This document shows, piece after piece, positions 3,213 through 28,017 of a DNA stretch of 64,000 nt. The stretch is taken from positions 285 to 64,284 of the forward strand of contig JBARBN010000053.1 of NCBI GenBank assembly GCA_049793155.1. Direction: 5' to 3'. The notes beneath the pieces were generated by a model. It made no database searches and was not told where the DNA came from. It worked only from the letters and a program-made list of their open reading frames with translations. The number at the start of each line of letters is the position of its first letter. Position 1 is the first letter of the stretch. The translations under genes and the position numbers were made by a program. This DNA comes from Nitrospirota bacterium (GTDB lineage Bacteria; Nitrospirota; UBA9217).

Positions 3213-3293
3213 TATTAAAACTCAGGGAGCAGTGAGCAGCAGGCAGCGGGTCGTGATGGCTGCTTTACGTTCACTGCTTTCTTTGTTCCTGAA

Positions 3294-6776: not shown

Positions 6777-6785
6777 TCTCTCATC

Positions 6786-8393: not shown

Positions 8394-8417
8394 TCTTTCT
8401 TACTGAGGAGGTTCGTG

Positions 8418-9131
8418 ATGAAAAGAAGCGTTATTTTTTTTAGTGTTTTGGCGGTACTGTTTTCTTTCTCTGCAGTTTCCTTTGCCTATGAAACGATCGA
8501 AGTGAAGAATGGGGGAAGCATCGAAGGCGTGGTCGAGTTTACAGGGGCAACGGTCCCGAAGGATCCCATGGTCACGCTGAGTTCCGAGGTAAAATACTGC
8601 GGCAAAACGCTCCCGGCGGAAAAGTATCTGATCAAGGATAAGATGATCGAAAACGTCGTTGTGTATTTGACGGATATCAAGTCCGGAAAGGCGATTCCCG
8701 GCGAGCCGGTCACCCTGACGAATATAAAATGTCTTTTTTCGCCTCATGTCGCCGTCGGCTTCAAGGGCGGCAAGATCATTCAGAAGAACGATGACCCCAT
8801 CTTTCACAATATCCATACGTATCTGAACGGCAAGACAATGTTCAATATAGGTCTTCCTGAAAAGGGATCTTCGGTGACGAAGCCATTGCTGAGGGACGGC
8901 CTCATGGAAGTGACGTGCGACAGCCATCCCTGGATGCATGGTTTTATCCAGATTCTGGACCATCCCTACGGAGTAGTCACCAATGCAAAAGGAGAATTTT
9001 CAATAAAAGACATCCCCGCCGGCACCTATACCGTTGAAGCCTGGCACGAGGCCCTGGGCAAGGTAAAAGTGGCAAATGTCAAAGTTGAAAGCGGTAAGGC
9101 CAGCAAGATCAAGCTCGAATACAAAAAATAA
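8418..9131 (+). CDS. secreted cupredoxin-domain protein, paralog 2 (amicyanin-like Cys-His-Met site)
   Basis: Colinear with the upstream gene. Roughly half the residues are identical by eye. NDDPIFHNIH plus TCDSHPWMHGF (C-x2-H-x2-M, compare amicyanin CTPHPFM). Signal peptide and a GAGGAGG RBS are present. Confidence 0.7.
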   Translation: MKRSVIFFSVLAVLFSFSAVSFAYETIEVKNGGSIEGVVEFTGATVPKDPMVTLSSEVKYCGKTLPAEKYLIKDKMIENVVVYLTDIKSGKAIPGEPVTLTNIKCLFSPHVAVGFKGGKIIQKNDDPIFHNIHTYLNGKTMFNIGLPEKGSSVTKPLLRDGLMEVTCDSHPWMHGFIQILDHPYGVVTNAKGEFSIKDIPAGTYTVEAWHEALGKVKVANVKVESGKASKIKLEYKK

Positions 9132-9155
9132 AACGCTGAAAAAGAGGAGGAGAAC

Positions 9156-10424: not shown

Positions 10425-10440
10425 CTGACATAGTAGCATT

Positions 10441-10468
10441 CTCCCGGGGGCCGGCCGGTCCCCGGGGT
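10441..10468 (+). terminator. GC-rich hairpin between the cytochrome-porin gene and the bd-like oxidase gene (possible attenuator or RNA-stability element)
   Basis: cccgggg (10443-10449) pairs with ccccggg (10460-10466). It lies in the only sizeable gap (71 nt) of the operon. The downstream T-run is weak. Confidence 0.3.
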
Positions 10469-10495
10469 CTTTCCTAAACAAGCTGGAGGTACATA

Positions 10496-12241
10496 ATGGC
10501 GGAAGCCGATGTGAAAAAAGGCATCCTGAAGGGAATTGTTAAATTTACTGCCACTCTCGGCGCTGGCTTTATACTCCTCGTTGTTCTTAAAAATATGCTG
10601 GCCGCGCCTTCAGAGGACGGATACCGGTTCTTCCCCCTTATCGGAAGCAGGGACTGGATCTGGATCATCGCCCAGCTCCACCTGAATTTCGCCGCCTTCG
10701 TCCTGGGGGTCCCCATCTTTGCGGTTGCGATGGAGTTCATGGGATGGAAAAAGAAGGATGAGAGACTGGATCGTATCGCGTATGACTTTACCAAGCTTTT
10801 TACGCTGGCGTATAGCGTGACGGCGGTTATGGGCTCTTTCTTTCTCATCAGTCTTCCGCTGCTCTACCCTAAATTTATCGATTATATGATGAAGATACTC
10901 GGGCCCACCTGGTGGTTGTACCTCATCGTGATGTATGGAGAGGTGTTCGTCTGTTATTATTATTTTTATTCCTGGAAAAAATTGAAAGAACGGAAGGGCT
11001 TTCATGTCGCCGTGGGCGTGCTGTTGAATATCCTCGGGGCGACGCTGCTTTTGATCACCAGTTCATGGGTCGGATTCATGACCACCCCGGCAGGCGTGAA
11101 CGCGGACGGTGATCTGGTCAGCAGATGGGCCGCGATCCACACTCACATGTGGATACCCCTGTCCATGCATCGGTTCGTGGCCAACATCGTATTCGGGGCA
11201 GGGATCGCCGCGGCCTATGCGGCCTTCAGATTCATTACCGCAGAGACGGATGAAGAACGGGCATATTTTGACTGGATGGGCTATACCTCGGCGATCATAT
11301 CGATCGGGGCCTCACTCCTGCTGCCCGGTGTCGGGTATCTTCTCGGTGTCGAGATCTATTCCTTCAATGAACAAATGGGCATCCAGCTCATGGGAGGATT
11401 TTTCGCGTGGTTGTGGGTCATGCAGTCCATCATGATCGGCGCGATCCTGTTCTTCATCAATTATTATCTCTGGATATCTCTCCAAAAAATGCCGGGAGGT
11501 GAACGGTATTTCACGCATGTAAAATTCATATTTATTGCACTGGTCATAGGCTATGCGGTCTGGCTCGTGCCCCATGATGTAGCGCTGAGCCTCGAAGAGG
11601 CACGGCGGACGGGCACGTATCATCCCGCACTGGGCAAACTGGGCGTCATGGCCGCAAAGAACACCGCTGTAATCCTTTCCTATCTCGCCACTTTTTTGAG
11701 CTTCGCCATTTTCCGGATGAGCAACAAAGAGGCGACCGTTTCCTGGGCCAAAAAAGGGAATATCGCCCGGACGCTGATCATTGTCGGCTCAGTCGCCGGC
11801 GTGCTGGGGATCGGCATCTACAGTTATTACGTCTCCGCGGCAGTAAGAGTGAAGGTCCTTTCACCCATCCAGTTCGGTATCTTCTTCCTTTCCCTTGTTG
11901 CCCTGTATGTTCTTGACAGCGCCATGTATAAGGGCGCCCGGATCATCGGCGAACCGAGGTGGGGCAAGATGCCCGAGCGATCGCAGTATGCGCTTATCGC
12001 GATAACCGTGACCTTTACCTGGCTGATGGGGATGCTGGGCTACATGAGGGCCGGCGCAAGGCAATACTGGCATGTGTACGGGATCATGAAGAACACGAGC
12101 CCGGACGCCTATCTGCCCACCCATGGATATGCATCGGTCATTGTCACGATCGTCACGCTGCTTTTTCTGCTCCTTATCTCCTTTGTCTTTTGGAGCATCA
12201 TGAAACTTGAGAAGGTCCTTGGTGAAAGGAAGGGGAACTGA
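10496..12241 (+). CDS. cytochrome bd-like oxidase, CydA-related subunit (orphan, about 14 TM)
   Basis: 581 aa with about 14 hydrophobic helices by eye. WIWIIAQLHLNFAAFVLGVPIF resembles the CydA helix-1 His region (..MYHFLFVPLTLG..). SMHRFVANIVFGAGIAAAYAAF resembles the CydA His186 region. No cydB-like gene is adjacent. Confidence 0.6.
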   Translation: MAEADVKKGILKGIVKFTATLGAGFILLVVLKNMLAAPSEDGYRFFPLIGSRDWIWIIAQLHLNFAAFVLGVPIFAVAMEFMGWKKKDERLDRIAYDFTKLFTLAYSVTAVMGSFFLISLPLLYPKFIDYMMKILGPTWWLYLIVMYGEVFVCYYYFYSWKKLKERKGFHVAVGVLLNILGATLLLITSSWVGFMTTPAGVNADGDLVSRWAAIHTHMWIPLSMHRFVANIVFGAGIAAAYAAFRFITAETDEERAYFDWMGYTSAIISIGASLLLPGVGYLLGVEIYSFNEQMGIQLMGGFFAWLWVMQSIMIGAILFFINYYLWISLQKMPGGERYFTHVKFIFIALVIGYAVWLVPHDVALSLEEARRTGTYHPALGKLGVMAAKNTAVILSYLATFLSFAIFRMSNKEATVSWAKKGNIARTLIIVGSVAGVLGIGIYSYYVSAAVRVKVLSPIQFGIFFLSLVALYVLDSAMYKGARIIGEPRWGKMPERSQYALIAITVTFTWLMGMLGYMRAGARQYWHVYGIMKNTSPDAYLPTHGYASVIVTIVTLLFLLLISFVFWSIMKLEKVLGERKGN

Positions 12242-12756
12242 TGAAAAAGGGCGTCTTGAAGCTCGCGATCATCGTCATTGGCCTGAACTTGATCTTTCTT
12301 TATATTGGTCTGGAGTTTCTTCCCCAGTCGGAATCCAGGCCGCCGAAGGTGATCAAGATCGCGGAAGGCATCTCCCAGGAAGACCTGATCCAGGTCGGCG
12401 AGGAGATCGTTTTTGGAAAAGGCCAGTGCATGGTATGTCACCCGGCAAAACCTGAATCGGGAATGCGGGCTCCATCCATGGCCGCAATAGGAGCAGACCT
12501 GGAGAAGGAGGCCCGCGAGCGGGGGATGACGTCCGAAGATGTTGTTTTCGAGGCCCTTATCAACCCCTCCAAATACATCGTAAAGGGGTTTGAAGACAGC
12601 ATGTCGCGCGTGGACAAGCCTCCGACGTCGCTGACCGACGGGGAGATCATAGCAGTAGCAGCATATCTGCAGAGCCATGGAGGAAAAGTCACGCTTTCCT
12701 ATCCCGGTTCTGTCCCGATCCTGAAGGGCCAAATAGCAAAGTCAGGAGGGAAGTAA
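12241..12756 (+). CDS. membrane-anchored monoheme c-type cytochrome
   Basis: N-terminal TM helix, one CxxCH (GQCMVCH) and a distal Met region. Its ATG overlaps the upstream stop (TGATG). Confidence 0.8.
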   Translation: MKKGVLKLAIIVIGLNLIFLYIGLEFLPQSESRPPKVIKIAEGISQEDLIQVGEEIVFGKGQCMVCHPAKPESGMRAPSMAAIGADLEKEARERGMTSEDVVFEALINPSKYIVKGFEDSMSRVDKPPTSLTDGEIIAVAAYLQSHGGKVTLSYPGSVPILKGQIAKSGGK

Positions 12757-12757
12757 G

Positions 12758-13561
12758 ATGCAATTCATATTCCCCATCATCACTTTGATCGGTTTGACGA
12801 TCTCGATCATCTCCAGTATGAAAAAATCCCCGTTCTTCAACTTCGTGGGTATCCAGATGGCCATCTACGGAGGATTGAAAAGTCTGGCGCTCGTCATGCC
12901 TCCTCTGCCGGGACAAGTTGTTGTCATGCTCGTGATCATGTCCTTCTTTTCGTTTCTCATCTATTTTTCGATCCAGGATGATACGCTGAAGGCCTTTCTT
13001 GAGCCCATGAGAGCGGTCATTGCCGACGATGACAAAAGAATTTTGAGGATACTCATCGTATATGTCCTCATACCCCTGCTGGCCGGATATATAACCTACG
13101 TAGAGGTAAAGCCTGCGTTTGAACCTCCGTTGTCGGGGAGGATCACCCATCCCGAGCCACCGTCGGAGATCGACTTTAAAGGAGACACAATAAAGATACT
13201 CGGATTGGAGAACCCCCTGCGAAAGGATTCTGCGAATCTTTCGAAGTATGGCGAAGAGGGGAAAGTAATTTACTTCCAGAACTGTTTCATCTGTCACGGC
13301 GCTGACTTGGACGGTCGGGGACAATTTGCCCAGGCATTTAATCCGCCGCCGCCTCCCTTCCGGGGCACGGATACGATCGCGCAGCTGCCGGAGTCCTATG
13401 TGTTCTGGAGGATAGCAAAGGGATGGACGGGTCTTTCCGCGGGCGCGACCCCATGGGATTCAGCCATGCCGGCATTTGAGAATATACTTACACAGGAACA
13501 GACGTGGAAGGTGATCCTCTATATGTATGAAGCTACCGGTAACAAACCAAGGACATGGTAA
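12758..13561 (+). CDS. polytopic membrane protein with a C-terminal monoheme cytochrome c domain
   Basis: 3-4 N-terminal TM helices followed by YFQNCFICHGADLDGRG ...WDSAMPAF (class I cytochrome c). There is a 1-nt gap to the upstream gene. Confidence 0.75.
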   Translation: MQFIFPIITLIGLTISIISSMKKSPFFNFVGIQMAIYGGLKSLALVMPPLPGQVVVMLVIMSFFSFLIYFSIQDDTLKAFLEPMRAVIADDDKRILRILIVYVLIPLLAGYITYVEVKPAFEPPLSGRITHPEPPSEIDFKGDTIKILGLENPLRKDSANLSKYGEEGKVIYFQNCFICHGADLDGRGQFAQAFNPPPPPFRGTDTIAQLPESYVFWRIAKGWTGLSAGATPWDSAMPAFENILTQEQTWKVILYMYEATGNKPRTW

Positions 13562-13586
13562 GGATATGCGGAAGGGAGATTCTCCA

Positions 13587-15008
13587 ATGAGGTTTTTTAT
13601 TGCCCTTGTTTTGCTCGCGTCAATTCCAATGACCGCACTTTCCGAAGAGAAGGGAAAGGCCCTCTATGATCAGTCGTGCGCTTCATGCCATGGGGAAAAG
13701 GGCGATGGGAAGGGCCCGGCGGCTGATTTCGTGTTCCCGAAACCAAGGGATTTTACGAAGGGCACGTACAAATTCAAATCCACGGGGTCGGGTGAGCCGG
13801 CCCTTGATTCGGACATTCTCCGGACAATACGGGAGGGAAATCCCGGTACGTCGATGCCTGCCTGGAAACGCTTCAGCGATGATGAGGCCAAAGCGCTTGT
13901 CGTTTATCTGAAGCAGTTTTCTCCGGATACCTTTTCGATACAAGGCGCCCCTTTCAAGATAGGTAATCCGCCGGGCAACAAGGATAAGATGATAGCACTC
14001 GGGAAGGAACTGTACCAGTCGGTGAAGTGCTGGGAATGTCACGGCAAGGCCGGCAGGGGCGACGGCGAGAAGGGATGGCAGGAAAAGTTCAAGGACGATT
14101 GGGGCAACAAGATATATCCTGCAGACCAGACAAGTCCCTGGGAATACAGGGCAGGCAGTGATCCGAAGGATGTGTTAAAAACGATTTCAGTCGGTTTCGA
14201 CGGTACGCCCATGACCTCATACGGAGATACGGTCACGGAGGAGAAGAGGTGGGCGCTTGCGTATTTTGTGCAATCGCAGCAGCAGACAAGGGTCCTCGGC
14301 CCGGCATTGCGGGTGAAAAAAGTGGAGGCCATCCCCGCTGCAACCGACGATCCGGTCTGGCAGGGCGTTGAGTATCTTGATCTTCCGATGGCAGGACAGG
14401 TGATCTTTGAGCCGCGTGATTTTACCGCGTTGATCACCAATGCGCGGGTACGAGGGGTCTATAGCAAGACCGAGTTGGCAGTGATGATAGAGTGGACCGA
14501 CAAACAGCAAAACAAGGGTGAGGACAATCTCCCCCCCGACGCAGCACGTATACAGTTCCCGACCAAAGCCCCGGAAGTAGCCAAGCCGTACTTATTCATG
14601 GGGGACAAGAAACTGGGGGTCAATATCTGGCAATGGAAGGCCTCTGACAATCTTGCTGTTGAATTCACTGCAGCAGGACCCGAGAATCTGACTCAGCAGG
14701 AAAAACAGGACGTGAAAGTAACTGCTGCGTTTACAGATGGACGCTATAGGGTCATGTTCAGGAGGCTGTTGAACTCAGCCAATGAAAACCACACCGTTTT
14801 TGAAGTCGGCAAGTTTATGCCGTTTTCGGTTACCCTCTACGATGGTCGTAATAATGAGTCGGACAAGAAGGGGGCGATCTCAGCTTGGTATTACCTGGTG
14901 CCGGAGCCGGCAACGCCTGCGAAGGTTTATATGCTCCCGCCCCTGGTATTCCTTGTCATACTCGGCATCGGCTTTATATTGCACAAGAAGTTGAGGAAGA
15001 AACGTTAG
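13587..15008 (+). CDS. diheme cytochrome c fused to an EB_dh/DOMON-like (heme b type) domain, with a C-terminal TM anchor
   Basis: Signal peptide MRFFIALVLLASIPMTALS. CASCHGEKGDGKG and CWECHGKAGRGDG. A roughly 200-aa domain, DDPVWQGVEYLDLPMAGQ..., resembles the ethylbenzene-dehydrogenase gamma family. C-terminus VYMLPPLVFLVILGIGFILHKKLRKKR. An alternative start exists at 13566. Confidence 0.65.
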   Translation: MRFFIALVLLASIPMTALSEEKGKALYDQSCASCHGEKGDGKGPAADFVFPKPRDFTKGTYKFKSTGSGEPALDSDILRTIREGNPGTSMPAWKRFSDDEAKALVVYLKQFSPDTFSIQGAPFKIGNPPGNKDKMIALGKELYQSVKCWECHGKAGRGDGEKGWQEKFKDDWGNKIYPADQTSPWEYRAGSDPKDVLKTISVGFDGTPMTSYGDTVTEEKRWALAYFVQSQQQTRVLGPALRVKKVEAIPAATDDPVWQGVEYLDLPMAGQVIFEPRDFTALITNARVRGVYSKTELAVMIEWTDKQQNKGEDNLPPDAARIQFPTKAPEVAKPYLFMGDKKLGVNIWQWKASDNLAVEFTAAGPENLTQQEKQDVKVTAAFTDGRYRVMFRRLLNSANENHTVFEVGKFMPFSVTLYDGRNNESDKKGAISAWYYLVPEPATPAKVYMLPPLVFLVILGIGFILHKKLRKKR

Positions 15009-15025
15009 GCAGGAGAATCATCGGC

Positions 15026-16021
15026 ATGTACAAAAAAATATTTATCCCTATAGATAACTCGAAATATTCCCGCTACTGTACCGACATTGGGGTGTCCCTG
15101 GCTTCCAAGCTCGGTTCCGAACTGATCGGCAGCCACGTCTACAGCGCGCGTTTGCACGACAAGCGGTTCCGGGACATGGAGGCAGGACTGCCCGGGCATT
15201 ATCAGGAGGAAGGCAGACTGCGGAAATCGAGAAAGGTCCACGATTCCCTGATCGGGGACGGGTTGAGAATAATCTCCGATTCTTATCTGGAATCCTTTAA
15301 AAAGGACTGCAGGGAATCCTCAGTGCCGTTCAATTGTAAAATGATGGAGGGGAAAAACTGGCTGGAGCTGGTAAAAGACATCCGAAGCAGCGGCTATGAT
15401 CTGGTGATCATGGGGATCCTCGGCCTCGGCGCGATGAACGGCAACCTTATCGGGAGTGTCTGTGAACGGGTAGTGCGGAAGGTCACGGCAGATGTCCTGG
15501 TCGTAAAGAACAGTGAACCGCTCAATGAACGGATCGTCGTGGCGATCGACGGCAGCGATCATTCCTTTTCGGCATTGAAAAAAGCACTGGCCCTGAACAA
15601 ACAGTTTCATTCGAAGATCGAGGCCGTATCCGTTTATGACCCCTATTTTCACAGAAGGGCCTTCCAGGCTCTGGTGGGCGTCCTCTCAGACGAAGCCGGG
15701 AAAATGTTCAAGTTTAAGGATCAGGAAAAGCTGCACGATGAGGTCATTGATGACGGTTTGGGAAAGATATATCAGGGGTACCTTGAACAAGCTGTTCAGA
15801 TAGGGGCCGCTCAAGGGGTCGAAGTGAAAAGTACGCTTCTCGCAGGAAAGGCGTATGACGAAATCCATAAATATCTGGAAAAAGACCCGCCATCTCTTCT
15901 CATCGTAAGCCGCTTTGGTGCGCATACGACCGACGAACAGGACATCGGCAACACTGCAGAGAACCTTCTTCGCCTTGCACCGTGCAATCTGCTTATCACG
16001 GGTAATTCTCACGTTGAATGA
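15026..16021 (+). CDS. tandem universal stress protein (two UspA domains)
   Basis: MYKKIFIPIDNSKYS..., VIMGILGLG...GSVCERVVRK..DVLVVK, and a second repeat IVVAIDGSDHS...LLIVSRFG...GNTAENLLRLAPCNLLI. An AGGAGA RBS precedes the ATG at 15026. Confidence 0.8.
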   Translation: MYKKIFIPIDNSKYSRYCTDIGVSLASKLGSELIGSHVYSARLHDKRFRDMEAGLPGHYQEEGRLRKSRKVHDSLIGDGLRIISDSYLESFKKDCRESSVPFNCKMMEGKNWLELVKDIRSSGYDLVIMGILGLGAMNGNLIGSVCERVVRKVTADVLVVKNSEPLNERIVVAIDGSDHSFSALKKALALNKQFHSKIEAVSVYDPYFHRRAFQALVGVLSDEAGKMFKFKDQEKLHDEVIDDGLGKIYQGYLEQAVQIGAAQGVEVKSTLLAGKAYDEIHKYLEKDPPSLLIVSRFGAHTTDEQDIGNTAENLLRLAPCNLLITGNSHVE

Positions 16022-17246: not shown

Positions 17247-18521
17247 ATGAACGACCTCCATGTTATATCCTGGAATGTCACTAGAAGATGTAATCTTGAA
17301 TGCACCCATTGCTATCTTCCCGCGGATACGAGAAAAGAAAGTTCTGCTCTTCCCGCCGCTGACGAACTCTCCACCAAGGATGCCTTCCGGCTCATCGATC
17401 AAATTGCCGCTGTCAACCCCGAGGTCATGCTGATCCTGTCTGGAGGAGAACCCCTCCTGAGAGGGGACATTTTTGATCTATCTGCGTACGCCTCAGGTAA
17501 GGGCATGATGGTTGTTATGGGTTCCAATGGACTCCTTATTGATGACGCCGTTGCCCGCAAGCTGAAACAGGCCGGGGTCTCCGGGATAAGCATCAGTCTT
17601 GATTCAATCGACCCGATAATTCACGATGATGTCCGCTCTTGCCCGGGCGCCTGGAAAAGGGCGGTAGCGGCAATAGAGAACTGCAAGAACGCGGGATTGT
17701 CAGTGCAGATCAATACGGTTGTCACCGGCAGGAACTGTGATGAGCTGCCCGCATTGATGAACTTTTCTCAAAAACGGGGAGTAAAGGTCTTTAGCCCGTT
17801 CTTCCTGGTCTGTACCGGCAGGGGAGAAGAACTGACGGACATATCGCCGCAGCAATACGAATTGGTATTGTCCCGGATCGTCGAGTCTCAGGGAAAATAT
17901 GGCGATCTGATGATAAGGACACGGTGCGCCCCGACAATACGTCGAATTCTGTATGATAAAGATCCCGACTCATCGCTGCTCAAGATGGGCGCCGGGCGTT
18001 GTCTCGCCGGTTTGACCTATTGCCGGATCACGCCTGAAGGTGACGTGACACCCTGTCCATACCTGTCCGTTTCAACCGGAAATATCCGCGAGCGGGATTT
18101 CGGGGACATCTGGAACAACTCCAGCCTCTTCGACTCTCTGAGAAATCCTGCTCTCAAGGGCAAATGTAAAGGATGTGCCTTGCGCCTCGTCTGCGGCGGT
18201 TGCAGAGCGAGGGCCTATGAGACCTATAAAGACTACCTGGAAGAAGATCCCTGGTGCAGCTATATTCCCAATGGAGGTGAAGTGGTGAAACCACCATCGT
18301 TCGGCAAGGATAACAATGCTTCAGCAAATGGATCGATCAAGCCTCTCTGGACGGCGGAGGCGGAAGAGCGGTTGAAGAGGGTGCCCTCGTTCGTTCGCAC
18401 GATGGTAAGAAGCGCCGCGGAGCGTTACGCGATCGAGCATAATTATCAAGAGATCACCCCTGGTATGATGGAAGAACTCAAACAAAAAGCAGGGATGGGA
18501 GGAATGGGTGGACATCGATAA
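17247..18521 (+). CDS. radical SAM/SPASM protein (AhbD/NirJ-like) with a C-terminal PCP_red-like extension
   Basis: CNLECTHCY radical SAM cluster motif and SGGEPLL. A Cys-rich SPASM region (CPYL..., CKGCALRLVCGGCRARA). The C-terminal roughly 70 aa (PLWTAEAEERLKRVPSFVRTMVRSAAERYAIEHNYQEITPGMMEE) resemble the protochlorophyllide-reductase 57-kD C-terminal domain. Confidence 0.7.
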   Translation: MNDLHVISWNVTRRCNLECTHCYLPADTRKESSALPAADELSTKDAFRLIDQIAAVNPEVMLILSGGEPLLRGDIFDLSAYASGKGMMVVMGSNGLLIDDAVARKLKQAGVSGISISLDSIDPIIHDDVRSCPGAWKRAVAAIENCKNAGLSVQINTVVTGRNCDELPALMNFSQKRGVKVFSPFFLVCTGRGEELTDISPQQYELVLSRIVESQGKYGDLMIRTRCAPTIRRILYDKDPDSSLLKMGAGRCLAGLTYCRITPEGDVTPCPYLSVSTGNIRERDFGDIWNNSSLFDSLRNPALKGKCKGCALRLVCGGCRARAYETYKDYLEEDPWCSYIPNGGEVVKPPSFGKDNNASANGSIKPLWTAEAEERLKRVPSFVRTMVRSAAERYAIEHNYQEITPGMMEELKQKAGMGGMGGHR

Positions 18522-19803: not shown

Positions 19804-19829
19804 ATACTGTCCGCTATAGCGGACAGTAT
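19804..19829. repeat. perfect 26-bp palindrome (terminator hairpin and/or operator)
   Basis: atactgtccgcta|tagcggacagtat. It lies 25 nt after the stop at 19779 and about 170 nt upstream of the porin gene. Confidence 0.6.
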
Positions 19830-19996: not shown

Positions 19997-21217
19997 ATGA
20001 GGTTATCAATGCGGTATAGTTGTGCTTTAGCTGCGCTGTTGTTATTAGGCCTCGGTGATGCAACAACTGCATCGGCTGTAGTCGTCGAAGGAAGAAGTTC
20101 CACGGAGCTTCTGTGGTACAACGATATTGTCGATGGCAGCAAGCAGACGGAGGCCGCGGAGTTGCTCAGGGTCTCGATCAGCGGTATCGACAACGGCAAC
20201 AAACTGTCCATCAAGGGGTACGGCAAACTCGATTATGATTTGAAGCACGGCGGTGATCTGGAAAATCGATTGTATTATTTATATGCCGACTACAAGGGTT
20301 TCATGGACAAGGCCGATATCAAACTGGGACGGCAGTTTGTGAACCTGTCAGCCGGCAGCGCTCTTCTGGACGGCATCGAGGCGGACATCAACAAGATCGG
20401 CCCCGTTGGTTTCGTGATCACGGGGGGGCGGGACGTCATTTTCGGTGAAGAAAAGGAGTTGGCGAGCCATCTCTATTCTTACGGCGCTCAGGCGTACCTC
20501 ACCGGCCCTCAGATGACCTATCTTGATATCAGCTACTATCGTGCTTACGATTATGGCGATATCGCCCGGGATATCATCGGCAGCAGCTACAAGCAATATT
20601 TTTTCAATCTCGTCAAAGCATACGCGAATGCCAGGTATGATCTCACGAGCAAGTCGTTCAACGAGGTCCTTGCGGGACTCAAGTATTTCCCGACGCTGAA
20701 CCTGATGCTGACCGCTGAGCATTATGAAAGTTACCCTACGTTTGATACGACCTCCATATATTCGGTATTTGCCGTCGATAAGTTCAAGGAGAATTTATTC
20801 AGGGCAGAATATACGCTGGCTGCATGGGTCGATATCAGCCTTGCCTTCAGCCATGAGAGCGTCGGTGAGGGCGGCCAAGCGAAATTGTACGAGGCAGGGT
20901 TGAGGTTCAGGCCTTCGATGAACACGACGATTGGCGTCTTCCACGACAAACGCAATGGATATCCCGGGGACCTTGACGGATATAAGATCTACGCTGAATA
21001 CAGCGCCATGGGAAAATGGAAGGCCGCAGGGGGCATTGACTATGATGCCTATGAACGGGACGACATGACCGGCCAGGAGACTGCACGCAAATACTGGGTC
21101 GGTGGAAAGTATGTTTTTGCAAAAAATATGGCCAGCTCGATTCGTTTGGAGGACGATGTCAATGTCAACTATACGAAAGACATACAGGGCAGGCTTACCT
21201 TTGATGTTGATTTCTAA
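19997..21217 (+). CDS. putative outer-membrane beta-barrel porin of a porin-cytochrome conduit
   Basis: Signal peptide ...GDATTASA. 406 aa with alternating hydrophobic and aromatic strands, many Y/G/D turns, and a C-terminal ...RLTFDVDF. The nonaheme gene starts 17 nt downstream. Confidence 0.6.
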   Translation: MRLSMRYSCALAALLLLGLGDATTASAVVVEGRSSTELLWYNDIVDGSKQTEAAELLRVSISGIDNGNKLSIKGYGKLDYDLKHGGDLENRLYYLYADYKGFMDKADIKLGRQFVNLSAGSALLDGIEADINKIGPVGFVITGGRDVIFGEEKELASHLYSYGAQAYLTGPQMTYLDISYYRAYDYGDIARDIIGSSYKQYFFNLVKAYANARYDLTSKSFNEVLAGLKYFPTLNLMLTAEHYESYPTFDTTSIYSVFAVDKFKENLFRAEYTLAAWVDISLAFSHESVGEGGQAKLYEAGLRFRPSMNTTIGVFHDKRNGYPGDLDGYKIYAEYSAMGKWKAAGGIDYDAYERDDMTGQETARKYWVGGKYVFAKNMASSIRLEDDVNVNYTKDIQGRLTFDVDF

Positions 21218-21233
21218 TGAAAGGGGAGCATCC

Positions 21234-22307
21234 ATGAAGAAATTGCTCATATTGGCAATGGTGATAGTTATTGCTTCGGCGGTGGTTGCATTTGCCGCTC
21301 ATAATCCAGGCATAACTGCGCAGACGGAATCTCCTGCAGCACAACCGGCGTCGCCTCCCGGAGATCAGTCATCAGCGACTCCTGCAGAACCGGCGCCCCA
21401 GACGGAAGCATCTGCTCCGGCAACACCCGCTCCGGTGGAACCTGCTCCGGCGACACCTGCTCCAGCAGCGTCTGCTCCGGTGGCACCTGCTACGACAGCT
21501 CCTGCTCCACAACAGGAGGCCTCTCCGGCGCCGGCCTGGCAACCGGCTACTTCGGCGACATCCACGGCTGCTTCAACTGCGCCGCCTGCAGGGTTCATGG
21601 TTCAGCAAATGTCCCATAAAGATTTTGCGAAAATGGACTTAAAAGAGTGCACGAAATGCCATAAAGGTTCAGGCGTTGCACCGACTCACGGGTCAGATCA
21701 GATGAGGGAACACAGTTTCCTCGCACGCCGAGCCGGAAAGAACTGTACGGACTGTCATAACCAGCAGTTCTGTTTAGATTGTCACAAGGGCGGCGGCATT
21801 GACGCGGATCTGAGCGTCTCGAATTATCGTACGAGCTACGTACCCAAAACCCACCGGACCGATTTCCGGGAGATCCATCCCATAAAGGCACTGGACAATC
21901 CGCAGTCCTGCTACCGGTGCCACGACGCGAAATACTGTTCAGAGTGCCATGCCAAGTTCAAGGGAGATGATCTCAGGATACAGTCTCACCGCAGGGCGTG
22001 GTCTGACCTTCAAGCAGGAAATCCGGGCCCTGCCCACGCTTCATTTACCGCGGACCAGTGCCAGACCTGCCATCCGGGCGGGCTTCTTCCAAAGCATGTA
22101 TGGTCTGCTGACCATGCGCAGGAGGCGCGGAGGAACCTGCAGGCATGCCAGACCTGTCACAGTGACGGCGATGTATGCATGACCTGTCACAGCGCCCGGC
22201 GCGGCCTCATGGTCAATCCTCATCCCAGGGGATGGGACTCTGTGAAGGGCAGATATAGCAAGAAGAGCGGCGGTCGAAGCTGTCAAAAGTGTCATGATAC
22301 TTATTAA
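21234..22307 (+). CDS. periplasmic nonaheme c-type cytochrome with an N-terminal Pro/Ala-rich spacer
   Basis: Signal peptide MKKLLILAMVIVIASAVVAFA. About 100 aa of P/A/T/S low complexity. Nine CxxCH motifs (CTKCH, CTDCH, CLDCH, CYRCH, CSECH, CQTCH, CQTCH, CMTCH, CQKCH) in about 235 aa. An AGGGGAG RBS precedes the start. Confidence 0.85.
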   Translation: MKKLLILAMVIVIASAVVAFAAHNPGITAQTESPAAQPASPPGDQSSATPAEPAPQTEASAPATPAPVEPAPATPAPAASAPVAPATTAPAPQQEASPAPAWQPATSATSTAASTAPPAGFMVQQMSHKDFAKMDLKECTKCHKGSGVAPTHGSDQMREHSFLARRAGKNCTDCHNQQFCLDCHKGGGIDADLSVSNYRTSYVPKTHRTDFREIHPIKALDNPQSCYRCHDAKYCSECHAKFKGDDLRIQSHRRAWSDLQAGNPGPAHASFTADQCQTCHPGGLLPKHVWSADHAQEARRNLQACQTCHSDGDVCMTCHSARRGLMVNPHPRGWDSVKGRYSKKSGGRSCQKCHDTY

Positions 22308-22405
22308 CGACGGGCCATATTGAATCGATATGAATAACACCTGAGGGAATAGGGAGTCACGAAGAATCATGATTGCCATCCCATCAAAGCAAGGAGGATC
22401 GCAAA

Positions 22406-24604
22406 ATGTTTAAACGATTCGGGATCATTTTTGGGTTACTAACGATTTTACCAGCCTTGTTTCTCGTTTATGGATGCGGAAACAGCAAGCGAGAGTCGGC
22501 GGGCGAAGCTCCCATCGCAGCGGTGAGCGCTGCCGGAAATATCCAGGCCAATATTACCGGTGCGGTGGTTTCCGCTACGACCGGCAGTTTGGTCGTCACA
22601 TTCACCCTGTTTGATGAAAAGGGGTCGGCATTGGATCCTGCGGATGCCACTATTAACGGGAAAAGCTTCGTTATAGCCCAGCTCGGCGCTGACGGTGAGT
22701 ACCATGATCCGATCCGCAATTCAAGTAGACAGCCCACGGCTGATTCGGGAGGCACGTTTGCCGGATCAGGTGGCACCTACACCTATGCCTTCGGCAAGAA
22801 CATCACAACGCTGCCCGGGTATGATGCCACGAAAACGTATACCGTGGCCGCCTATATCGGAAGAACCATTTCGAACGTAGTCGGCTCGCCCTTTCGGCAG
22901 ATATCCAATCCGCGATTTGACTTCAGGCCCGATGGTACAGCGGCAACGGATCACCGGGAGATCGTTGCCATTGATGCCTGCAATGAGTGCCACGGTAAGC
23001 TCACCGCCCATGAGGGCAACCGGATGGATGTCCCCCTTTGTATCCTCTGCCACAATCCAGGCGAGATCGATACCGATACCGGCAATACGATCGATTTCAA
23101 AGCAATGATCCACAAGATACACATGGGAAGCAAACTGCCCAGCAATACAAGGGGTGGCGCTTACGGCATCATCGGATTTGGCAATGCACAGCACGACTTC
23201 TCAAAGGTTGTCTATCCGCAGATGTCCGGGGATACCCAAACAGATAATGCTCCTGTTGATTGCGTCAAATGCCACCGGCTCGGTACAGACACGAACGGTA
23301 AAGCGTACGGCAAAGATGTTGATAAGTGGAAAACGAAACCAAGCATAGAGACATGCACCGGGTGCCACGATGTGTACACCTTTGATGGCATTACAAGCTC
23401 AGTGACAGTCACGACGTTTGCAGGGGTCGTCACCTCCGTGACGGCTTCAGCTCACTCCGGCGGCGTACAGCCGCTGGATAGCTCCACCTGTGCGGTGTGC
23501 CATACGGGCACAGGAGACGATGCATATGCATCCATCTCGGTTCCCGCGGTTCATACGATCCCGATCAAGTCGAGCCTTAATCCGGGACTCGTTTTTAGTA
23601 TTGTTTCCGCAACCGGTATTGCATCGGGTTTGACGCCGTCGGTCACCTTTACCATTACAGACAAGACGGGGGCCAATGCCGTTATGGTGCTTGGCGACCG
23701 TACGGATGTGATCATGGGGTACATGACCGGTATTGAGTATGACAATACGCTGGCAAATTGGATTTTCGGTCAGAGCACGGTTCAGGGAAAAGCGGCGAAT
23801 GCCTTCTCAACATCCGTCACGACAACGGCGAATGCAGACGGATCCTATACGGTCTCCTATGATAGGCCCTGGTATGTGCCGTCTGCCACGAAATTGAAAC
23901 CAGTACTGCCGCCAAGCGGCGTTGTTACGTTCGCCGTATATGGCGGGAAAGCAGTAACGATCCCGGCTGCCAATACAGCGCATCGAGTGGCCGCTGGGAC
24001 AAGCAAGGTCACCATGACTTCAACCTCGGTTGCGATCAACTACTATGATATCGCGACCGGTTTGACCGCAACTCCGGCACAACAGCGCCGGCAGGTGGTC
24101 TCAACTGAGCTCTGTAATGTCTGTCATTTGCAACTTGCATTCCACGGCCGGAGGACAGAAACTCAGCTCTGCGTAATGTGCCATGGCCCGAATCTTACTT
24201 ATTTAGCGCCATCGAGCAGCCCCTCACCCGGCTACTCGGGCAATTTGAAGGATTTTGTTCATGGCATCCACGGGGCGACAACTTCAACTACTGTTTTCAG
24301 AGGAGTGGAAGTCGCAGAAATTCCGAATGATCCGAGGAAATGCAGTATCTGTCACCTCAATAATTCCCAATTGTTGCCGCTGCCCGTGGGGGTAAAGGGC
24401 TCACTCAAAACAGGAACAACCGGAACGTCTTTGGATGGTACGCCGGTGTTAACGATAAAAGCCGCATGCGTGGCGTGCCATGAAAACCCCTTGACAGCAA
24501 CACACGCAGACAGTAAAGTTATTTCCGGAAGTGAAACCTGTGTGGTCTGCCATGGGACAGGATTACTCATGGGTGTAGATGCTGTTCATTTGCCGGCTAA
24601 TTAG
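22406..24604 (+). CDS. lipoprotein decaheme c-type cytochrome with MtrC/OmcA-like four-domain layout
   Basis: Lipobox LVYGC. Ten CxxCH motifs sit in two groups of five (nt 22977-23504 and nt 24113-24553). Each group is preceded by a roughly 190-200-aa heme-free, Thr/Ser/Val-rich region. An AAGGAGGA RBS precedes the start. Confidence 0.8.
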   Translation: MFKRFGIIFGLLTILPALFLVYGCGNSKRESAGEAPIAAVSAAGNIQANITGAVVSATTGSLVVTFTLFDEKGSALDPADATINGKSFVIAQLGADGEYHDPIRNSSRQPTADSGGTFAGSGGTYTYAFGKNITTLPGYDATKTYTVAAYIGRTISNVVGSPFRQISNPRFDFRPDGTAATDHREIVAIDACNECHGKLTAHEGNRMDVPLCILCHNPGEIDTDTGNTIDFKAMIHKIHMGSKLPSNTRGGAYGIIGFGNAQHDFSKVVYPQMSGDTQTDNAPVDCVKCHRLGTDTNGKAYGKDVDKWKTKPSIETCTGCHDVYTFDGITSSVTVTTFAGVVTSVTASAHSGGVQPLDSSTCAVCHTGTGDDAYASISVPAVHTIPIKSSLNPGLVFSIVSATGIASGLTPSVTFTITDKTGANAVMVLGDRTDVIMGYMTGIEYDNTLANWIFGQSTVQGKAANAFSTSVTTTANADGSYTVSYDRPWYVPSATKLKPVLPPSGVVTFAVYGGKAVTIPAANTAHRVAAGTSKVTMTSTSVAINYYDIATGLTATPAQQRRQVVSTELCNVCHLQLAFHGRRTETQLCVMCHGPNLTYLAPSSSPSPGYSGNLKDFVHGIHGATTSTTVFRGVEVAEIPNDPRKCSICHLNNSQLLPLPVGVKGSLKTGTTGTSLDGTPVLTIKAACVACHENPLTATHADSKVISGSETCVVCHGTGLLMGVDAVHLPAN

Positions 24605-24630: not shown

Positions 24631-24664
24631 AAAAAGGCCCCGGAAAAATCCGGGGCCTTTTAAT
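24631..24664. terminator. bidirectional rho-independent terminator
   Basis: aaaaa-ggccccgg-aaaaat-ccggggcc-ttttaattt, lying between convergent genes. Confidence 0.85.
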
Positions 24665-24696: not shown

Positions 24697-25764
24697 CTAT
24701 TTCAAGGTAATCGCTTTCTCAGGACACATTTCCTGACAGCAAAAGCACGCGATACACGTTCTGGCATCCACCTGGGGGATTTCATCAATCATGGACAAAG
24801 CAGACACCGGACAGTGGTCAATGCAGGTACCGCAGCCGGTGCACTTTGCAGCATCCGCTTGTGGGCGGAGGATGGTTAGACTGTGTATCATCGACTGCAT
24901 GGTTTCGTTGCGCTGGAGCGCTTCTCCGCCCAAGGGAGGCAGCTTGAAATCGGGTAGCCGTTTCAACTCTCCAATGACTTCAATCGTGTTCAGCTCATAG
25001 TTGCCCAGACCTGCCTCCTTCGCTATCTGAAGGAAACGCAACCGGCCCGGTTCACACCCCATAATCGTTGCAATCACAGCGTCAACGGCCACGGCATTGT
25101 CAGAGGCGAGGATCAGTTCGATATTTCTGAGGTCAGGTGAGGCTGGTCCGTTGCCCTCCATACCGACTACAGCGTCTACGATGAACAGGTCCGGCACCCT
25201 GAGCCGGAAGACATCAACGATAACCTCATGGAATCGTGCAGGACTGCCGGCAGCCTTGTGAAGCATGGCTTTCTGGGCACCAGGTAAAATACCATAACTA
25301 TTTTTTATCGCTCCGGTCAGAACAGTCAAACCATGGGTCTTGAATTTTGGCAGGCTGATGAAAATATCGGCGTCCATGACTGCGCGGGATACGCTTACGG
25401 CCGGCATGAATTTGGCATTGAAATCTACCTTTAGGGAATCGTTGCCGATGTTTTGATAGTGCCCCCCTGCTGCTTCCATAAGGCCCGTTATTGTGAAGCT
25501 TTCCTCATTCGCCCCATAGCTGAACAGACCTGGATTGTCACCCACCACGATAGAGGCGGGACCCATCGTCTCCACCTTGTCGACGACGGCGCGAAGAACG
25601 GCAGGATTGGTGACGATGCTTTCATTTGCCATCGAAGTACGAAGTACGTTCGGCTTTATCAAGATCTTCTTCTCCTGTATCGTTAAGGGAAAAAGGTCGA
25701 AAGCCCGGTCAACCGCTTGACGGACATTTTCATAGGTAGAAGGATGGATCATGACCCTTGACAT
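24697..25764 (-). CDS. DUF362 domain protein with a C-terminal 2x[4Fe-4S] ferredoxin domain
   Basis: 355 aa. The DUF362-like body (ILIKPNV..., GDNPG...) is followed by CTGCGTCIDHCP and CIACFCCQEMCP. Confidence 0.75.
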   Translation of the reverse strand: MSRVMIHPSTYENVRQAVDRAFDLFPLTIQEKKILIKPNVLRTSMANESIVTNPAVLRAVVDKVETMGPASIVVGDNPGLFSYGANEESFTITGLMEAAGGHYQNIGNDSLKVDFNAKFMPAVSVSRAVMDADIFISLPKFKTHGLTVLTGAIKNSYGILPGAQKAMLHKAAGSPARFHEVIVDVFRLRVPDLFIVDAVVGMEGNGPASPDLRNIELILASDNAVAVDAVIATIMGCEPGRLRFLQIAKEAGLGNYELNTIEVIGELKRLPDFKLPPLGGEALQRNETMQSMIHSLTILRPQADAAKCTGCGTCIDHCPVSALSMIDEIPQVDARTCIACFCCQEMCPEKAITLK

Positions 25765-25842
25765 AAATTAATCTTCGCTCTCGACATAAGTTCAACGAGG
25801 CATTTCCTCAGACAGATGAAGTAAAAATAAAAAAATTGAAAC

Positions 25843-25932
25843 GCGGAGACGGGGAGGCGCGGGAAAACAATTGGTTTTTGAAACACAAGCCTTGCCATCC
25901 TTTTCCCTGTGTCTCGGTGCCTCTGAGGTGAA
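25843..25932. repeat. intergenic hairpin repeat, family D (cacagagRcac/ggtgcctctg units)
   Basis: gcggagacggggaggcgcgggaaaa faces ttttccctgtgtctcggtgcctctgaggtgaa. Related copies are at 30273-30319, 36065-36137, 36647-36713, 41746-41847 and 49063-49158. Confidence 0.65.
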
Positions 25933-25949
25933 CACCTTTGGCTTTTGAA

Positions 25950-26516
25950 CTAAGCTCTTTTGCCGATCGAAAATGCCTTGCCGATACGCTCGCCGATGCT
26001 GTGATAAGCACCTTGCCCCGTATCGAAAATAAGCGGCCTGACCTTCAGGATATCTGTCATTCCCTGTTCGTCGAGCACCGACTCTTCGGCCTTGATGTCC
26101 ACGATCTCGCCAATGAATTGCGTATGGAGTCCGATTTCCACGGTGTGGAGCACTTTGCACTCTATCACAACAGGGAATTCTTTTATAAACGGAGCGTCGA
26201 CAAGCACGCTTCGAACGGGAGTCAGTTTCATTACATCAAACTTATCGACAGTTCTTCCTGAAACGGTGCCGACGTAGTCTACCTCTTTCACCAGCGCGGC
26301 TGACGGGATGTTGACGGTGTAAGCTTTGCGTTCCTTGATGCATCCGTATGTATACGTTGCCTTGCGCAGGGAAATAGTGACGCAGGGAGGCTGTGAGCAG
26401 CAGATTCCACCCCATGCAATAGTCATGATATTCGGTTTCCCCTGAGCGTCGTAGCTTCCGATAACCCAGACAGGCGCCGGCTGAGCGAGTGTTTTGGCAC
26501 CGAGCGACTTTTTCAT
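25950..26516 (-). CDS. flavin reductase-like (FMN-binding split-barrel) protein
   Basis: 188 aa. PNIMTIAWGGICCSQPPCVTISLRK...TVNIPS...VSGR..DKF is typical of the flavin reductase domain family. Confidence 0.75.
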   Translation of the reverse strand: MKKSLGAKTLAQPAPVWVIGSYDAQGKPNIMTIAWGGICCSQPPCVTISLRKATYTYGCIKERKAYTVNIPSAALVKEVDYVGTVSGRTVDKFDVMKLTPVRSVLVDAPFIKEFPVVIECKVLHTVEIGLHTQFIGEIVDIKAEESVLDEQGMTDILKVRPLIFDTGQGAYHSIGERIGKAFSIGKRA

Positions 26517-26592
26517 GGTTACCTCCTAAACGAAGCTTTAAATTATTTTATTTAACCGGGGAATATTTTGACCATACAGGGTTTCCCAGTCG

Positions 26593-27777
26593 CTATTTCT
26601 TTAAGGGAGTCCGGATAAATTCCAGGAGGTCCGCCATCTCTCCTTTTTTTAGTTGAGGCCAGGAAACGCCTTTCTCTCCCGTCGCGGCCTGCATTTTGAC
26701 GCTGTGATTCCAGATACTGGCTACGATTTCGGTCGGCTGGCTGTTACGGAAATTGGACAGATCGATATACATAAGTGTACCGTGTTTCCCGTCCAAACCG
26801 TGGCATTGCGCACACCCGAAAGCTGAAAAGAGTTTTTTCCCTTTCGATGAATCCCCAGGCTCATCCGTATAATGGAGGAAGTAAAGATAGGCGAGGAGAT
26901 CCGTCATTTCTTTCGCGGTGAACCGGGGAACCCCGCACTGCGTTGGGGCTATTGTAAACAGGATCATCTCAGGGCTCTTGTTCCACATGCTCGAAGCGAT
27001 CTGGGTGAGGCTCGTATAAAAGGCCTCGGCTCTTTTCCCGAGATCGGGGCCTCCCTTTCCGCCTTCGCCATGGACTGAATGACAATTGGCACATCCCTTG
27101 GCGTTAAAGACCGCCCTGCCTTCCCTGGGATTGCCTTGCCTGATGAAAAAAGGTTCTTCCGCACCCTTTGCCGCGGTCCTGATATAAGCCAGTGTATCCA
27201 TCATCTCTGTTTCAGTAAAATGGGGCCACATCATCCCGATCCGTACCATGCGGGCCATCATGCGCAGGCTGTGATTCCAGATCGACTGGCTTAGAAAAAC
27301 CGGCGAAGCGTTTCGGGGAAACTCATCGAGTCCGGGCGCGCCGTCTTTGTCTCTACCCGAGACAAGATGACAAGAGATGCAGCCCTTCTGGTCGAAGAGG
27401 TATTTCCCGCTGGCGGCATCGCCAGGCTTATCAAAGAACCTGAGAAAATAGAGATAGTCGGTGATCTCGGTAAATTCCTGTCCGGTCAGCGTCGGCTTGG
27501 GGATCCCCGCTTGTTCCATACCCGCGATCATAGATGGAGTATGGTTCCAGATCTCCGCCGCCAGATCCAGTTGTGTGCCGCCGAGAGTGATCGTGCCCAA
27601 ATCCGGCCCGGTCTTTCCTCCCTCACCGTTGACAGCATGGCATTTCACGCATCCCTTGCTTACAAACAGTTGGCCCCCTTTGGATGGGTCTTCAGGAAGT
27701 ATTTGGGCGACCGCAGACGTCGAGGCCAAGAGAAGGAGAATGATGATTCCGTTTGATATTATCGTACCGATCTTCAA
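26593..27777 (-). CDS. periplasmic tetraheme cytochrome made of four tandem class-I cytochrome c domains
   Basis: Four repeats of G-x-LF-x3-GC-x2-CH-x-V-x-GEGGK-x-GPDLG ... IWNHS-x2-M (CVKCH, CISCH, CANCH, CAQCH). The start is set to the TTG at 27777, 6 nt after an AAGGAGGA RBS, which gives the signal peptide LKIGTIISNGIIILLLLASTSAVA. Confidence 0.8.
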   Translation of the reverse strand: MKIGTIISNGIIILLLLASTSAVAQILPEDPSKGGQLFVSKGCVKCHAVNGEGGKTGPDLGTITLGGTQLDLAAEIWNHTPSMIAGMEQAGIPKPTLTGQEFTEITDYLYFLRFFDKPGDAASGKYLFDQKGCISCHLVSGRDKDGAPGLDEFPRNASPVFLSQSIWNHSLRMMARMVRIGMMWPHFTETEMMDTLAYIRTAAKGAEEPFFIRQGNPREGRAVFNAKGCANCHSVHGEGGKGGPDLGKRAEAFYTSLTQIASSMWNKSPEMILFTIAPTQCGVPRFTAKEMTDLLAYLYFLHYTDEPGDSSKGKKLFSAFGCAQCHGLDGKHGTLMYIDLSNFRNSQPTEIVASIWNHSVKMQAATGEKGVSWPQLKKGEMADLLEFIRTPLKK

Positions 27778-28017
27778 GGTAAATCCTCCTTTGTCATTTT
27801 TAAAAATCCCGATATTGCCATGGAGATGCCACCGGTGCCTTTTGGACCGAGAACCGCACTCGAGGAGCAAGCTTTAATAAGCACCTATATCATAGGATAA
27901 CGCTTTCGCGCGATATTTTCCAGTGTTTTAAGGTGTCAGAATATAATCGATAGACTGCATTGGAATGAATACTCGATGTATTTCAAAATGAATGTCCGGC
28001 ACACCGGCCCTGTTAAC

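Follow-up and report, generated by a model that had tools for sequence, protein, structure and literature searches.

The closest described counterpart of the genes that are our subject is PccF, a porin–cytochrome complex (Pcc) of Geobacter metallireducens. It is encoded by Gmet_0908, Gmet_0909 and Gmet_0910, which specify a protein of 405 amino acids (aa), a 259-aa cytochrome, and a 731-aa protein with an MtrC/MtrF domain. These genes were included among the pcc clusters by Shi et al. (2014; PMC4245776), and the name PccF, with OmbF, OmaF and OmcF for the three components, was given by Holmes et al. (2022; PMC10989804). In the account of Zhuo et al. (2024) the porin has 20 motifs, the periplasmic cytochrome nine hemes and the outer cytochrome ten; when Gmet0908-0910 are deleted, ferrihydrite reduction is delayed, anodes are no longer reduced, and direct electron transfer between species is diminished (PMC11389400). 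The outer cytochrome, Gmet_0910, is not an orthologue of OmcB, nor is it equivalent to GSU2737 (Aklujkar et al., 2009). Here we describe a cluster of the same kind from another phylum: three adjacent genes, for a porin, a nonaheme cytochrome and a lipoprotein decaheme cytochrome, in a stretch of 64,000 nucleotides (nt) from a Nitrospirota bacterium (contig JBARBN010000053.1). This whole stretch is referred to below as 'the window', and the three genes together as 'the triad'.

Pcc systems and Mtr systems, the latter exemplified by MtrCAB of Shewanella, have been called phylogenetically unrelated (PMC4245776). The NCBI and JGI annotations nonetheless label proteins such as OmcF as members of the OmcA/MtrC family; the papers that we consulted do not discuss this. 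An earlier note on the window, made from the sequence alone, had described the triad as a hybrid, Geobacter in gene order and Shewanella in architecture. The description is correct, but it applies to an existing class, and the combination is not new. The same set of porin, 9-heme cytochrome and MtrC-family 10-heme cytochrome is already known, and has been studied genetically, as PccF.

Relationship to PccF of Geobacter

Each protein of the triad has its counterpart at the corresponding place in PccF. The porin is 49% identical to Gmet_0908 over 397 of its 406 aa (E 4e-139), the nonaheme is 64% identical to Gmet_0909 over the 235-aa heme domain (E 3e-119), and the decaheme is 41% identical to Gmet_0910 over its full length (E 4e-155). 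The gene order is the same, the heme numbers (nine and ten) are the same, and the sizes agree closely, with 406 aa against 405 for the porin and 732 aa against 731 for the decaheme. In both clusters the surface cytochrome is a lipoprotein of the OmcA/MtrC family, for which the family model, TIGR03507, gives Gmet_0910 a score of 640.6 bits, and in both the lipobox follows the pattern xYGC (LVYGC here, LYGC in Gmet_0910). The clusters differ in host, which is a member of the Desulfobacterota there and of the Nitrospirota here, and in the nonaheme, which here carries an additional linker of about 100 aa, rich in Ala, Pro, Thr and Ser, behind its signal peptide. They differ also in number: G. metallireducens and G. 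pickeringii have two Pcc clusters in tandem, whereas the triad has no second cluster adjacent to it.

We consider the three genes to be a single operon for a PccF-type (OmbF–OmaF–OmcF) porin–cytochrome complex in Nitrospirota, one that most likely conducts electrons outward, and we put the probability of this reading at roughly 0.8. Assembly into a complex, the topology of the proteins within it, and the direction in which electrons flow would be those expected from the family.

The surface decaheme

The decaheme carries a lipobox, read by eye as LVYGC with its Cys at residue 24, and ten CxxCH motifs that fall, as the earlier note had said, into two groups of five (residues 192, 212, 286, 317 and 362, and residues 570, 589, 646, 688 and 712). 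A heme-free region precedes each group, and both regions are rich in Thr, Ala, Val, Ser and Gly. Their lengths had been put at roughly 190–200 aa. This suits the second (203 aa, residues 367-569), but the first is nearer to 170 aa (about 168 aa, residues 25-191).

Sequence and structure place the protein in the OmcA/MtrC family. It matches TIGR03507 with 366.9 bits, against a cut-off of 209.3, and does so across positions 2-672 of the 672 in the profile. It also matches PF22113, the model for domains II and IV of MtrC and MtrF (1.8e-50), and a phmmer search of the PDB retrieves only MtrF, OmcA, UndA and MtrC. The AlphaFold2 model, built from 54 homologues (pLDDT 82.2, pTM 0.84), supports a four-domain fold in which a beta-barrel (I), a pentaheme domain (II), a second beta-barrel (III) and a second pentaheme domain (IV) follow one another. 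When this model is compared with known structures by Foldseek, the top 16 matches are, without exception, OmcA, MtrC, UndA or MtrF (E 3e-27 to 1e-10), with TM-scores of 0.55-0.67 against the full-length structures; the next are meaningless matches to immunoglobulin domains, with TM-scores below 0.15. The decaheme had been called MtrC-like, and by the score above cut-off and the composition of the Foldseek matches it is a bona fide member of the OmcA/MtrC family.

Conservation within the family is strongest where the hemes are held. Across the 54-sequence alignment, all ten CxxCH motifs are invariant, as are eight distal His residues, and two more His are nearly so; the His residues outside the motifs are sufficient for bis-His ligation of every heme. 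Beyond the heme motifs the only Cys is that of the lipobox, and the disulfide found in domain III of the Shewanella proteins is therefore absent. This disulfide is a feature of the clade of Shewanella MtrC/OmcA-type proteins rather than one that defines the family.

The porin

The porin has the features that had marked it as a beta-barrel candidate: a signal peptide, apparently cut between ATTASA and VVVEG (again read by eye), and a C-terminus, FDVDF, that ends in Phe. It has no Cys-heme motif. The AlphaFold2 model, made from an alignment of 53 sequences (pLDDT 84.6, pTM 0.72), is a barrel of 22 strands, as counted by DSSP, with very short loops. The barrel itself is thus borne out, while the strand number is 22 instead of the expected 20 or so. 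This value lies inside the range of 18-22 trans-membrane motifs published for Pcc porins (Shi et al., 2014; PMC4245776). In Foldseek comparisons the model matches outer-membrane barrels solely, the best of them FimD, an usher of 24 strands (TMq 0.55-0.57).

The TonB-dependent receptors have barrels of this size class, which hold a plug domain of about 150 residues inside them. A porin of such dimensions has the width needed to sheath a slender multiheme protein, rather than being too narrow for the housing role that the earlier note had proposed for it. An MtrB/PioB-type sheath was considered and rejected, since such sheaths have about 650-800 aa and 26-28 strands, and the porin, with 406 aa and 22 strands, matches no family: searches against Pfam and NCBIfam gave nothing at E values up to 1, whether to an MtrB model or to any other. 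Sequence searches found 908 homologues, Gmet_0908 among them. With this homology, the strand count and the synteny described below, the porin is of the small Pcc type and stands in the Geobacter gene order, as had been suggested.

Conservation in the porin family is highest at the motif YPTFDTTSIYSVFAV, which contains invariant and near-invariant columns of the 53-sequence alignment. The model places this motif in a loop that joins strands 13 and 14, where it overlaps residues 250-259, the one stretch in which pLDDT falls below 50. Such a loop would fit a segment that becomes ordered solely against a partner, and is a candidate for a loop that makes contacts or forms a constriction.

The periplasmic nonaheme

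The middle gene had been thought to encode a secreted cytochrome with nine hemes, and its product has both a signal peptide, cut by eye between MKKLLILAMVIVIASAVVAFA and AH, and nine CxxCH motifs. The 235-aa heme domain contains ten further His residues besides those of the motifs. Despite its position beside a barrel and an MtrC-family protein, it is not an MtrA/DmsE cytochrome. That assignment was tried and rejected, for TIGR03508 gives 18.5 bits against a cut-off of 192.2 and the hemes number nine rather than ten. A sequence search of the PDB with the nonaheme retrieved neither MtrA nor any solved relative.

The linker referred to above separates the signal peptide from the first heme; it is a low-complexity segment of about 100 aa (residues 22-125) that includes 31 Ala and 24 Pro. 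A linker of 50-100 aa occurs in every Nitrospirota homologue of the nonaheme that we compared, and is missing from the homologues in Geobacter and Syntrophales; the linker sequence itself is unconserved. We speculate that it acts as a flexible spacer or tether in the periplasm.

Comparison with other conduits

The better known Pcc clusters of Geobacter sulfurreducens, OmbB–OmaB–OmcB and OmbC–OmaC–OmcC, share the architecture and order of the triad, namely porin, periplasmic multiheme cytochrome and lipoprotein multiheme cytochrome, a link that is drawn from the description by Shi et al. (2014; PMC4245776). They differ in that the periplasmic cytochrome has eight hemes there and nine here, and in that the surface cytochrome is of the 12-heme OmcB type there and an MtrC-family decaheme here. 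The porin and periplasmic cytochrome family to which the triad belongs does occur, in many Geobacterales, with 8-heme and 12-heme partners.

MtrCAB of Shewanella (PDB 6R2Q; MtrC 4LM8, OmcA 4LMH and MtrF 3PMQ) resembles the triad chiefly in its surface component, which is lipid-anchored and has the same family and fold, and in the general plan of a barrel that sheathes a periplasmic multiheme protein. The sheaths and their contents are different. MtrB has about 700 aa and 26 strands, a good deal more than the porin here, and MtrA has ten hemes. The order of the genes is also different, mtrC-mtrA-mtrB in the one case and porin first in the other.

Inward conduits provide a third comparison. PCC_1-3 of Ca. 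Manganitrophus, which is itself a member of the Nitrospirota, and MtoAB and PioAB likewise combine an outer-membrane porin with multiheme cytochromes to move electrons across the outer membrane (PMC9040806). These systems are proposed, or have been shown, to operate inward, in the oxidation of Mn(II) or Fe(II). The Ca. Manganitrophus systems are set apart from the triad by description: they pair a porin with a dodecaheme cytochrome, and PCC_1 is restricted to the Manganitrophaceae (PMC9040806). MtoAB and PioAB have no surface cytochrome of the MtrC type (PMC4245776).

Distribution and exchange of the surface cytochrome

The porin alignment was scanned against one genome per GTDB species, which yielded 169 relatives, and 79 distinct loci were kept. 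The closest porins are from metagenome-assembled genomes (MAGs) of Nitrospirota, at 79, 74, 64, 64, 63 and 57% identity; further away, at 42-52%, are many from Geobacterales, Desulfuromonadales and Syntrophales. The bacterium from which the window comes is therefore an uncultured member of the Nitrospirota whose species is not represented in that collection. In a neighbour-joining tree of the porins, those of Nitrospirota form one clade, and those with 9-heme partners, including all of the PccF type, group together.

The first two genes of the cluster are all but inseparable, and the third is not. Directly behind the gene that best matches the porin, in 80 of 81 loci from Nitrospirota, Geobacterales and Syntrophales, there is a gene for a homologous cytochrome with 8 or 9 hemes. 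The product of the third gene has 9, 10, 12 or 13 hemes, depending on the locus, and is in most cases a lipoprotein. The full triad is kept at nine loci (L001, L004, L039, L053, L060, L063, L077, L082 and L087) and partly at a tenth (L073), so that its synteny, which the earlier note had wanted checked, extends to relatives. An MtrC-family decaheme occupies the third position in G. metallireducens, G. pickeringii, several MAGs of Geobacteraceae and Syntrophales, and the Nitrospirota loci L004 and L082.

Locus L083 is particularly instructive. It has the same flanks as the triad in the window, with the opp permease, tig, clpP, clpX and engB on one side and argB, hslU, hslV and xerC on the other, and its porin and nonaheme are 71% and 72% identical to those described here. 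Its third gene (12094-14076 of that locus), by contrast, encodes a non-homologous lipoprotein of 660 aa with 8+2 heme motifs. The third genes of two other Nitrospirota loci, L003 (8232-10505) and L008 (8253-10982), encode surface multiheme lipoproteins with 9+2 and 13 heme motifs, respectively. The possibility that these three proteins are remote relatives of the decaheme was rejected, as none has a significant match by BLASTP or to TIGR03507. A variable third gene behind a conserved porin and periplasmic cytochrome implies that the surface cytochrome is a replaceable cassette, in agreement with the report that, in Pcc systems, conservation is higher among the porins than among the surface cytochromes (PMC11389400). 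The chassis, for its part, stays where it is. It occupies the same chromosomal position, beside argB-hslUV-xerC, in three genomes, and within Nitrospirota the Pcc locus is chromosomally fixed.

The gene for a radical-SAM/SPASM protein that ends in a PCP_red domain lies upstream of the triad in the window and downstream of it in L082 (15092-16156), an 85%-identical relative, which indicates local rearrangement around a conserved Pcc operon. Elsewhere, MtrC-family genes stand in the classical order: in an Acidobacteria contig, mtrC and an mtrA-like gene are followed by a gene for a 671-aa protein that has no Pfam match and is presumably the barrel.

Gene starts, terminators and transcription

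The coordinates of the triad and of the features around it are collected in Table 1. The three genes were found in the order and at the places given by the earlier note, with the start codons slightly revised. A ribosome-binding site (RBS) stands before every one of them, and the gaps between them are 16 nt (porin to nonaheme) and 98 nt (nonaheme to decaheme). The porin starts with an ATG behind a GGGAGG Shine–Dalgarno site, and the decaheme with an ATG behind AAGGAGG. For the nonaheme, the open reading frame (ORF) as listed begins with a GTG at 21102; the start that is backed by an RBS is the ATG at 21234 (AAAGGGGAG).

Table 1. Features of the PccF-type locus and its surroundings, in coordinates of the window
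Feature	Position	Strand	Description
OmbF-type Pcc porin	19997..21217	+	406 aa, signal peptide, 22-strand beta-barrel (model), C-terminal Phe
Most conserved porin-family motif, YPTFDTTSIYSVFAV	20732..20776	+	porin residues 246-260
OmaF-type periplasmic nonaheme c-type cytochrome	21234..22307	+	357 aa, 9 CxxCH
A/P/T/S-rich linker of the nonaheme	21297..21608	+	residues 22-125
OmcF-type surface lipoprotein decaheme, OmcA/MtrC family	22406..24604	+	732 aa, 5+5 hemes, four-domain fold
Bidirectional intrinsic terminator	24632..24661		between the decaheme gene and the convergent DUF362/4Fe-4S gene (24697-25764, -)
11-bp perfect hairpin	19804..19829	+	3' of the small ORF 19438-19779
Block between engB and the Pcc operon	7638..16021		Cyc2-like protein, bd-like oxidase subunit I, cytochromes and others
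Cyc2-like monoheme-porin	9156..10424		422 aa
bd-like oxidase subunit I	10496..12241
Radical-SAM/SPASM protein	17247..18521		C-terminal PCP_red domain
Three genes convergent to the triad	24697..27870	-	DUF362 with 4Fe-4S dicluster, flavin reductase-like, tetraheme class-I cytochrome c

The unit had been said to close with a strong bidirectional terminator, and this is what folding of the sequence gives. The hairpin, GAAAAAGGCCCCGG-AAAA-CCGGGGCCUUUU, has a G+C stem of 13 bp, a folding energy (dG) of -24.7 kcal/mol and a z-score of -5.5, and none of 200 shuffled sequences folds equally well. A-runs and T-runs flank it on both sides, and convergent genes lie to either side. It was recognized by reading and folding the sequence; a simple scan for consensus terminators had passed over it, since the T-run forms part of the stem.

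Upstream of the triad there is a second hairpin, with the core ACTGTCCGC TATA GCGGACAGT (dG about -20 kcal/mol, z -4.6), 170 nt 5' of the porin start. It probably terminates the small ORF that precedes it, in which case the triad would be transcribed as a unit of its own. The alternative that this palindrome is a conserved operator was rejected, as it is not conserved upstream of the porin in three relatives. Comparison of the 217-nt leader with Rfam revealed no riboswitch or other family; the lone match, to a snoRNA, is a chance one (E 0.54).

Neighbouring genes

The block of about 8 kilobases (kb) that separates engB from the Pcc operon has a respiratory character. It encodes two CarboxypepD_reg proteins, a Cyc2-like monoheme-porin, a bd-like oxidase subunit I, three c-type cytochromes (one with an EB_dh domain) and a universal stress protein; a CsgG-like protein is also encoded upstream of the triad, as is the radical-SAM/SPASM protein already mentioned. 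The Cyc2-like protein has a signal peptide, a single CxxCH at residue 37, a barrel-like remainder and an aromatic residue at the C-terminus, an architecture that fits a Cyc2, a fused cytochrome-porin with one N-terminal CxxCH and a 16-strand barrel. It belongs to no Pfam family, and its 163 homologues are all unnamed Nitrospirota proteins, likewise without one. The earlier note had placed the Cyc2-like operon only 4 kb from the triad, and this distance is about right. The block as a whole is absent from L083, which has the same flanking genes (compare positions 6658-10000 of that locus), and it is absent beside the triad of L082; it looks like the insertion or deletion of a respiratory island. 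Since the adjacency is specific to this genome, it offers no evidence of a functional link to the triad, and such linkage, as a conserved feature, was rejected. From this proximity the earlier note had concluded that the organism may have distinct inward and outward routes of extracellular electron transfer, a suggestion that finds no support here.

On the other side, convergent to the triad, lie the three genes of the minus strand listed in Table 1. The last of their products, the tetraheme cytochrome, is a 425-aa protein with four CxxCH motifs in which class-I cytochrome c domains are repeated. These three proteins may be redox partners in the periplasm or the cytoplasm.

The remaining window consists of housekeeping genes. 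Just 5' of tig-clpP-clpX, at 2062-3376, are seven tandem tRNA genes (Pro, Arg, His, Arg, Arg, Lys and Leu); the minus-strand ORF listed at 2449-2958 overlaps them and is an artefact. A protein of the DUF3373 family, matched over its full length with 438 bits, is encoded at 38627-40051.

Proposed mechanism and direction of electron flow

In the conduit as we picture it, the 22-strand barrel would sit in the outer membrane, the secreted nonaheme would thread into it from the periplasm to serve as an insulated heme wire, and the lipid-anchored decaheme would cap it at the cell surface. A continuous chain of bis-His hemes could then carry electrons across the outer membrane, most likely outward, with periplasmic carriers as the donors and insoluble Fe(III) or Mn(IV) oxides, humics, electrodes, or partner cells as the acceptors. 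We favour the outward direction because the sole orthologous cluster to have been studied, that of G. metallireducens, serves electron transfer to Fe(III) oxide, to anodes and between species (PMC11389400), and because Fe(II)-oxidizing clusters of the Mtr type typically lack an MtrC-type surface cytochrome (PMC4245776).

Several points weigh on the other side. That the nonaheme enters the barrel is an assumption by analogy, and the lipoprotein and the signal peptides were called by eye. Multiheme conduits are, in principle, reversible. No inner-membrane quinol oxidase partner was identified within the window. A fused cytochrome-porin of the Cyc2-like kind and the bd-like oxidase cluster lie 4-10 kb upstream, and for the Ca. 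Manganitrophaceae, in the same phylum, porin–cytochromes have been proposed to oxidize Mn(II) (PMC9040806). From such points an inward conduit can be constructed, in which the decaheme would take up electrons supplied by Fe(II), Mn(II), reduced minerals, cathodes or partner cells, and these would pass by way of the nonaheme and periplasmic c-type cytochromes to the bd-like oxidase encoded nearby, a form of lithotrophy alongside the Cyc2-like protein. The three c-type cytochromes of the upstream block and the tetraheme class-I cytochrome c just downstream, on the opposite strand, also speak for it, as does the Fe(II) oxidation that has been shown for one Nitrospirota Cyc2. We regard inward flow as unlikely, though it deserves a real share of belief. 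The adjacency on which it leans is not conserved, for neither L083, with the same flanks and the porin–nonaheme pair, nor L082, with the full triad, has the block; the PCC systems of Ca. Manganitrophus are described as dodecaheme systems restricted to their own family (PMC9040806); and the two arguments just given for outward flow also count against the reverse. Also doubtful, and to our minds distinctly improbable, is the suggestion that a PccF-type conduit has been re-purposed in this lineage, whether by a turn to inward flow, from Fe(II)/Mn(II) minerals to the adjacent bd-like oxidase chain, or by use of the Pro/Ala-rich 50-100 aa extension of the nonaheme as a tether that spans the periplasm, or by both. 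Were the signal peptide left uncleaved, the extension would be an inner-membrane anchor, and the outer-membrane complex would be wired to the inner membrane without soluble carriers.

Explanations that deny the genes a common role fare worse. One of them makes the decaheme a periplasmic multiheme reductase, related to the octaheme nitrite, tetrathionate or hydroxylamine enzymes, in which case the barrel would be a general porin unrelated to it. Single CxxCH pairs do give weak, partial matches to the NrfH, NrfB and DmsE models, all of them far under the cut-offs. Against these stand the full-length match to TIGR03507 above its cut-off, the sequence and fold searches of the PDB, which yield the surface cytochromes OmcA, MtrC, UndA and MtrF only, the presence of a lipobox instead of a plain signal peptide, and the adjacency of porin and cytochrome in 80 of 81 loci from three phyla. 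On the fold, profile and PDB searches a reductase of this sort was rejected, and we hold the idea to be very improbable. That the cluster might be a passenger without a role, recently acquired by horizontal transfer or in decay, is scarcely credible at all. The porin family is shared by Nitrospirota and Desulfobacterota, at about 45-52% identity, and some transfer between the phyla is thereby implied, but an ancient one. The three ORFs are intact and each stands behind a good ribosome-binding site, their G+C content (0.53-0.54) is like that of the remaining window, and the heme motifs and distal His residues are all conserved; the Nitrospirota porins, moreover, are a clade of their own down to 57% identity, and the chromosomal position is kept in the three genomes referred to above. 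A PccF-type conduit that runs outward continues to be our preferred reading.

Significance

The earlier observation stands, and its reading of the architecture was right; the system is a new member, in Nitrospirota, of a known kind. The current view of how such conduits work is unchanged by it. Our literature searches found no description of a PccF-type cluster in Nitrospirota, a phylum known for the oxidation of nitrite, Fe(II) and Mn(II) and for sulfur cycling, and not for the reduction of minerals. The locus extends a genetically characterized Geobacter conduit, PccF, to uncultured Nitrospirota of groundwater and sediment. It also provides a clear case in which, at one fixed chromosomal locus, the surface cytochrome has been exchanged on a conserved chassis of porin and periplasmic cytochrome. 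Mtr-type and Pcc-type systems are usually called unrelated; the cluster shows directly that they share, and exchange, a surface module.

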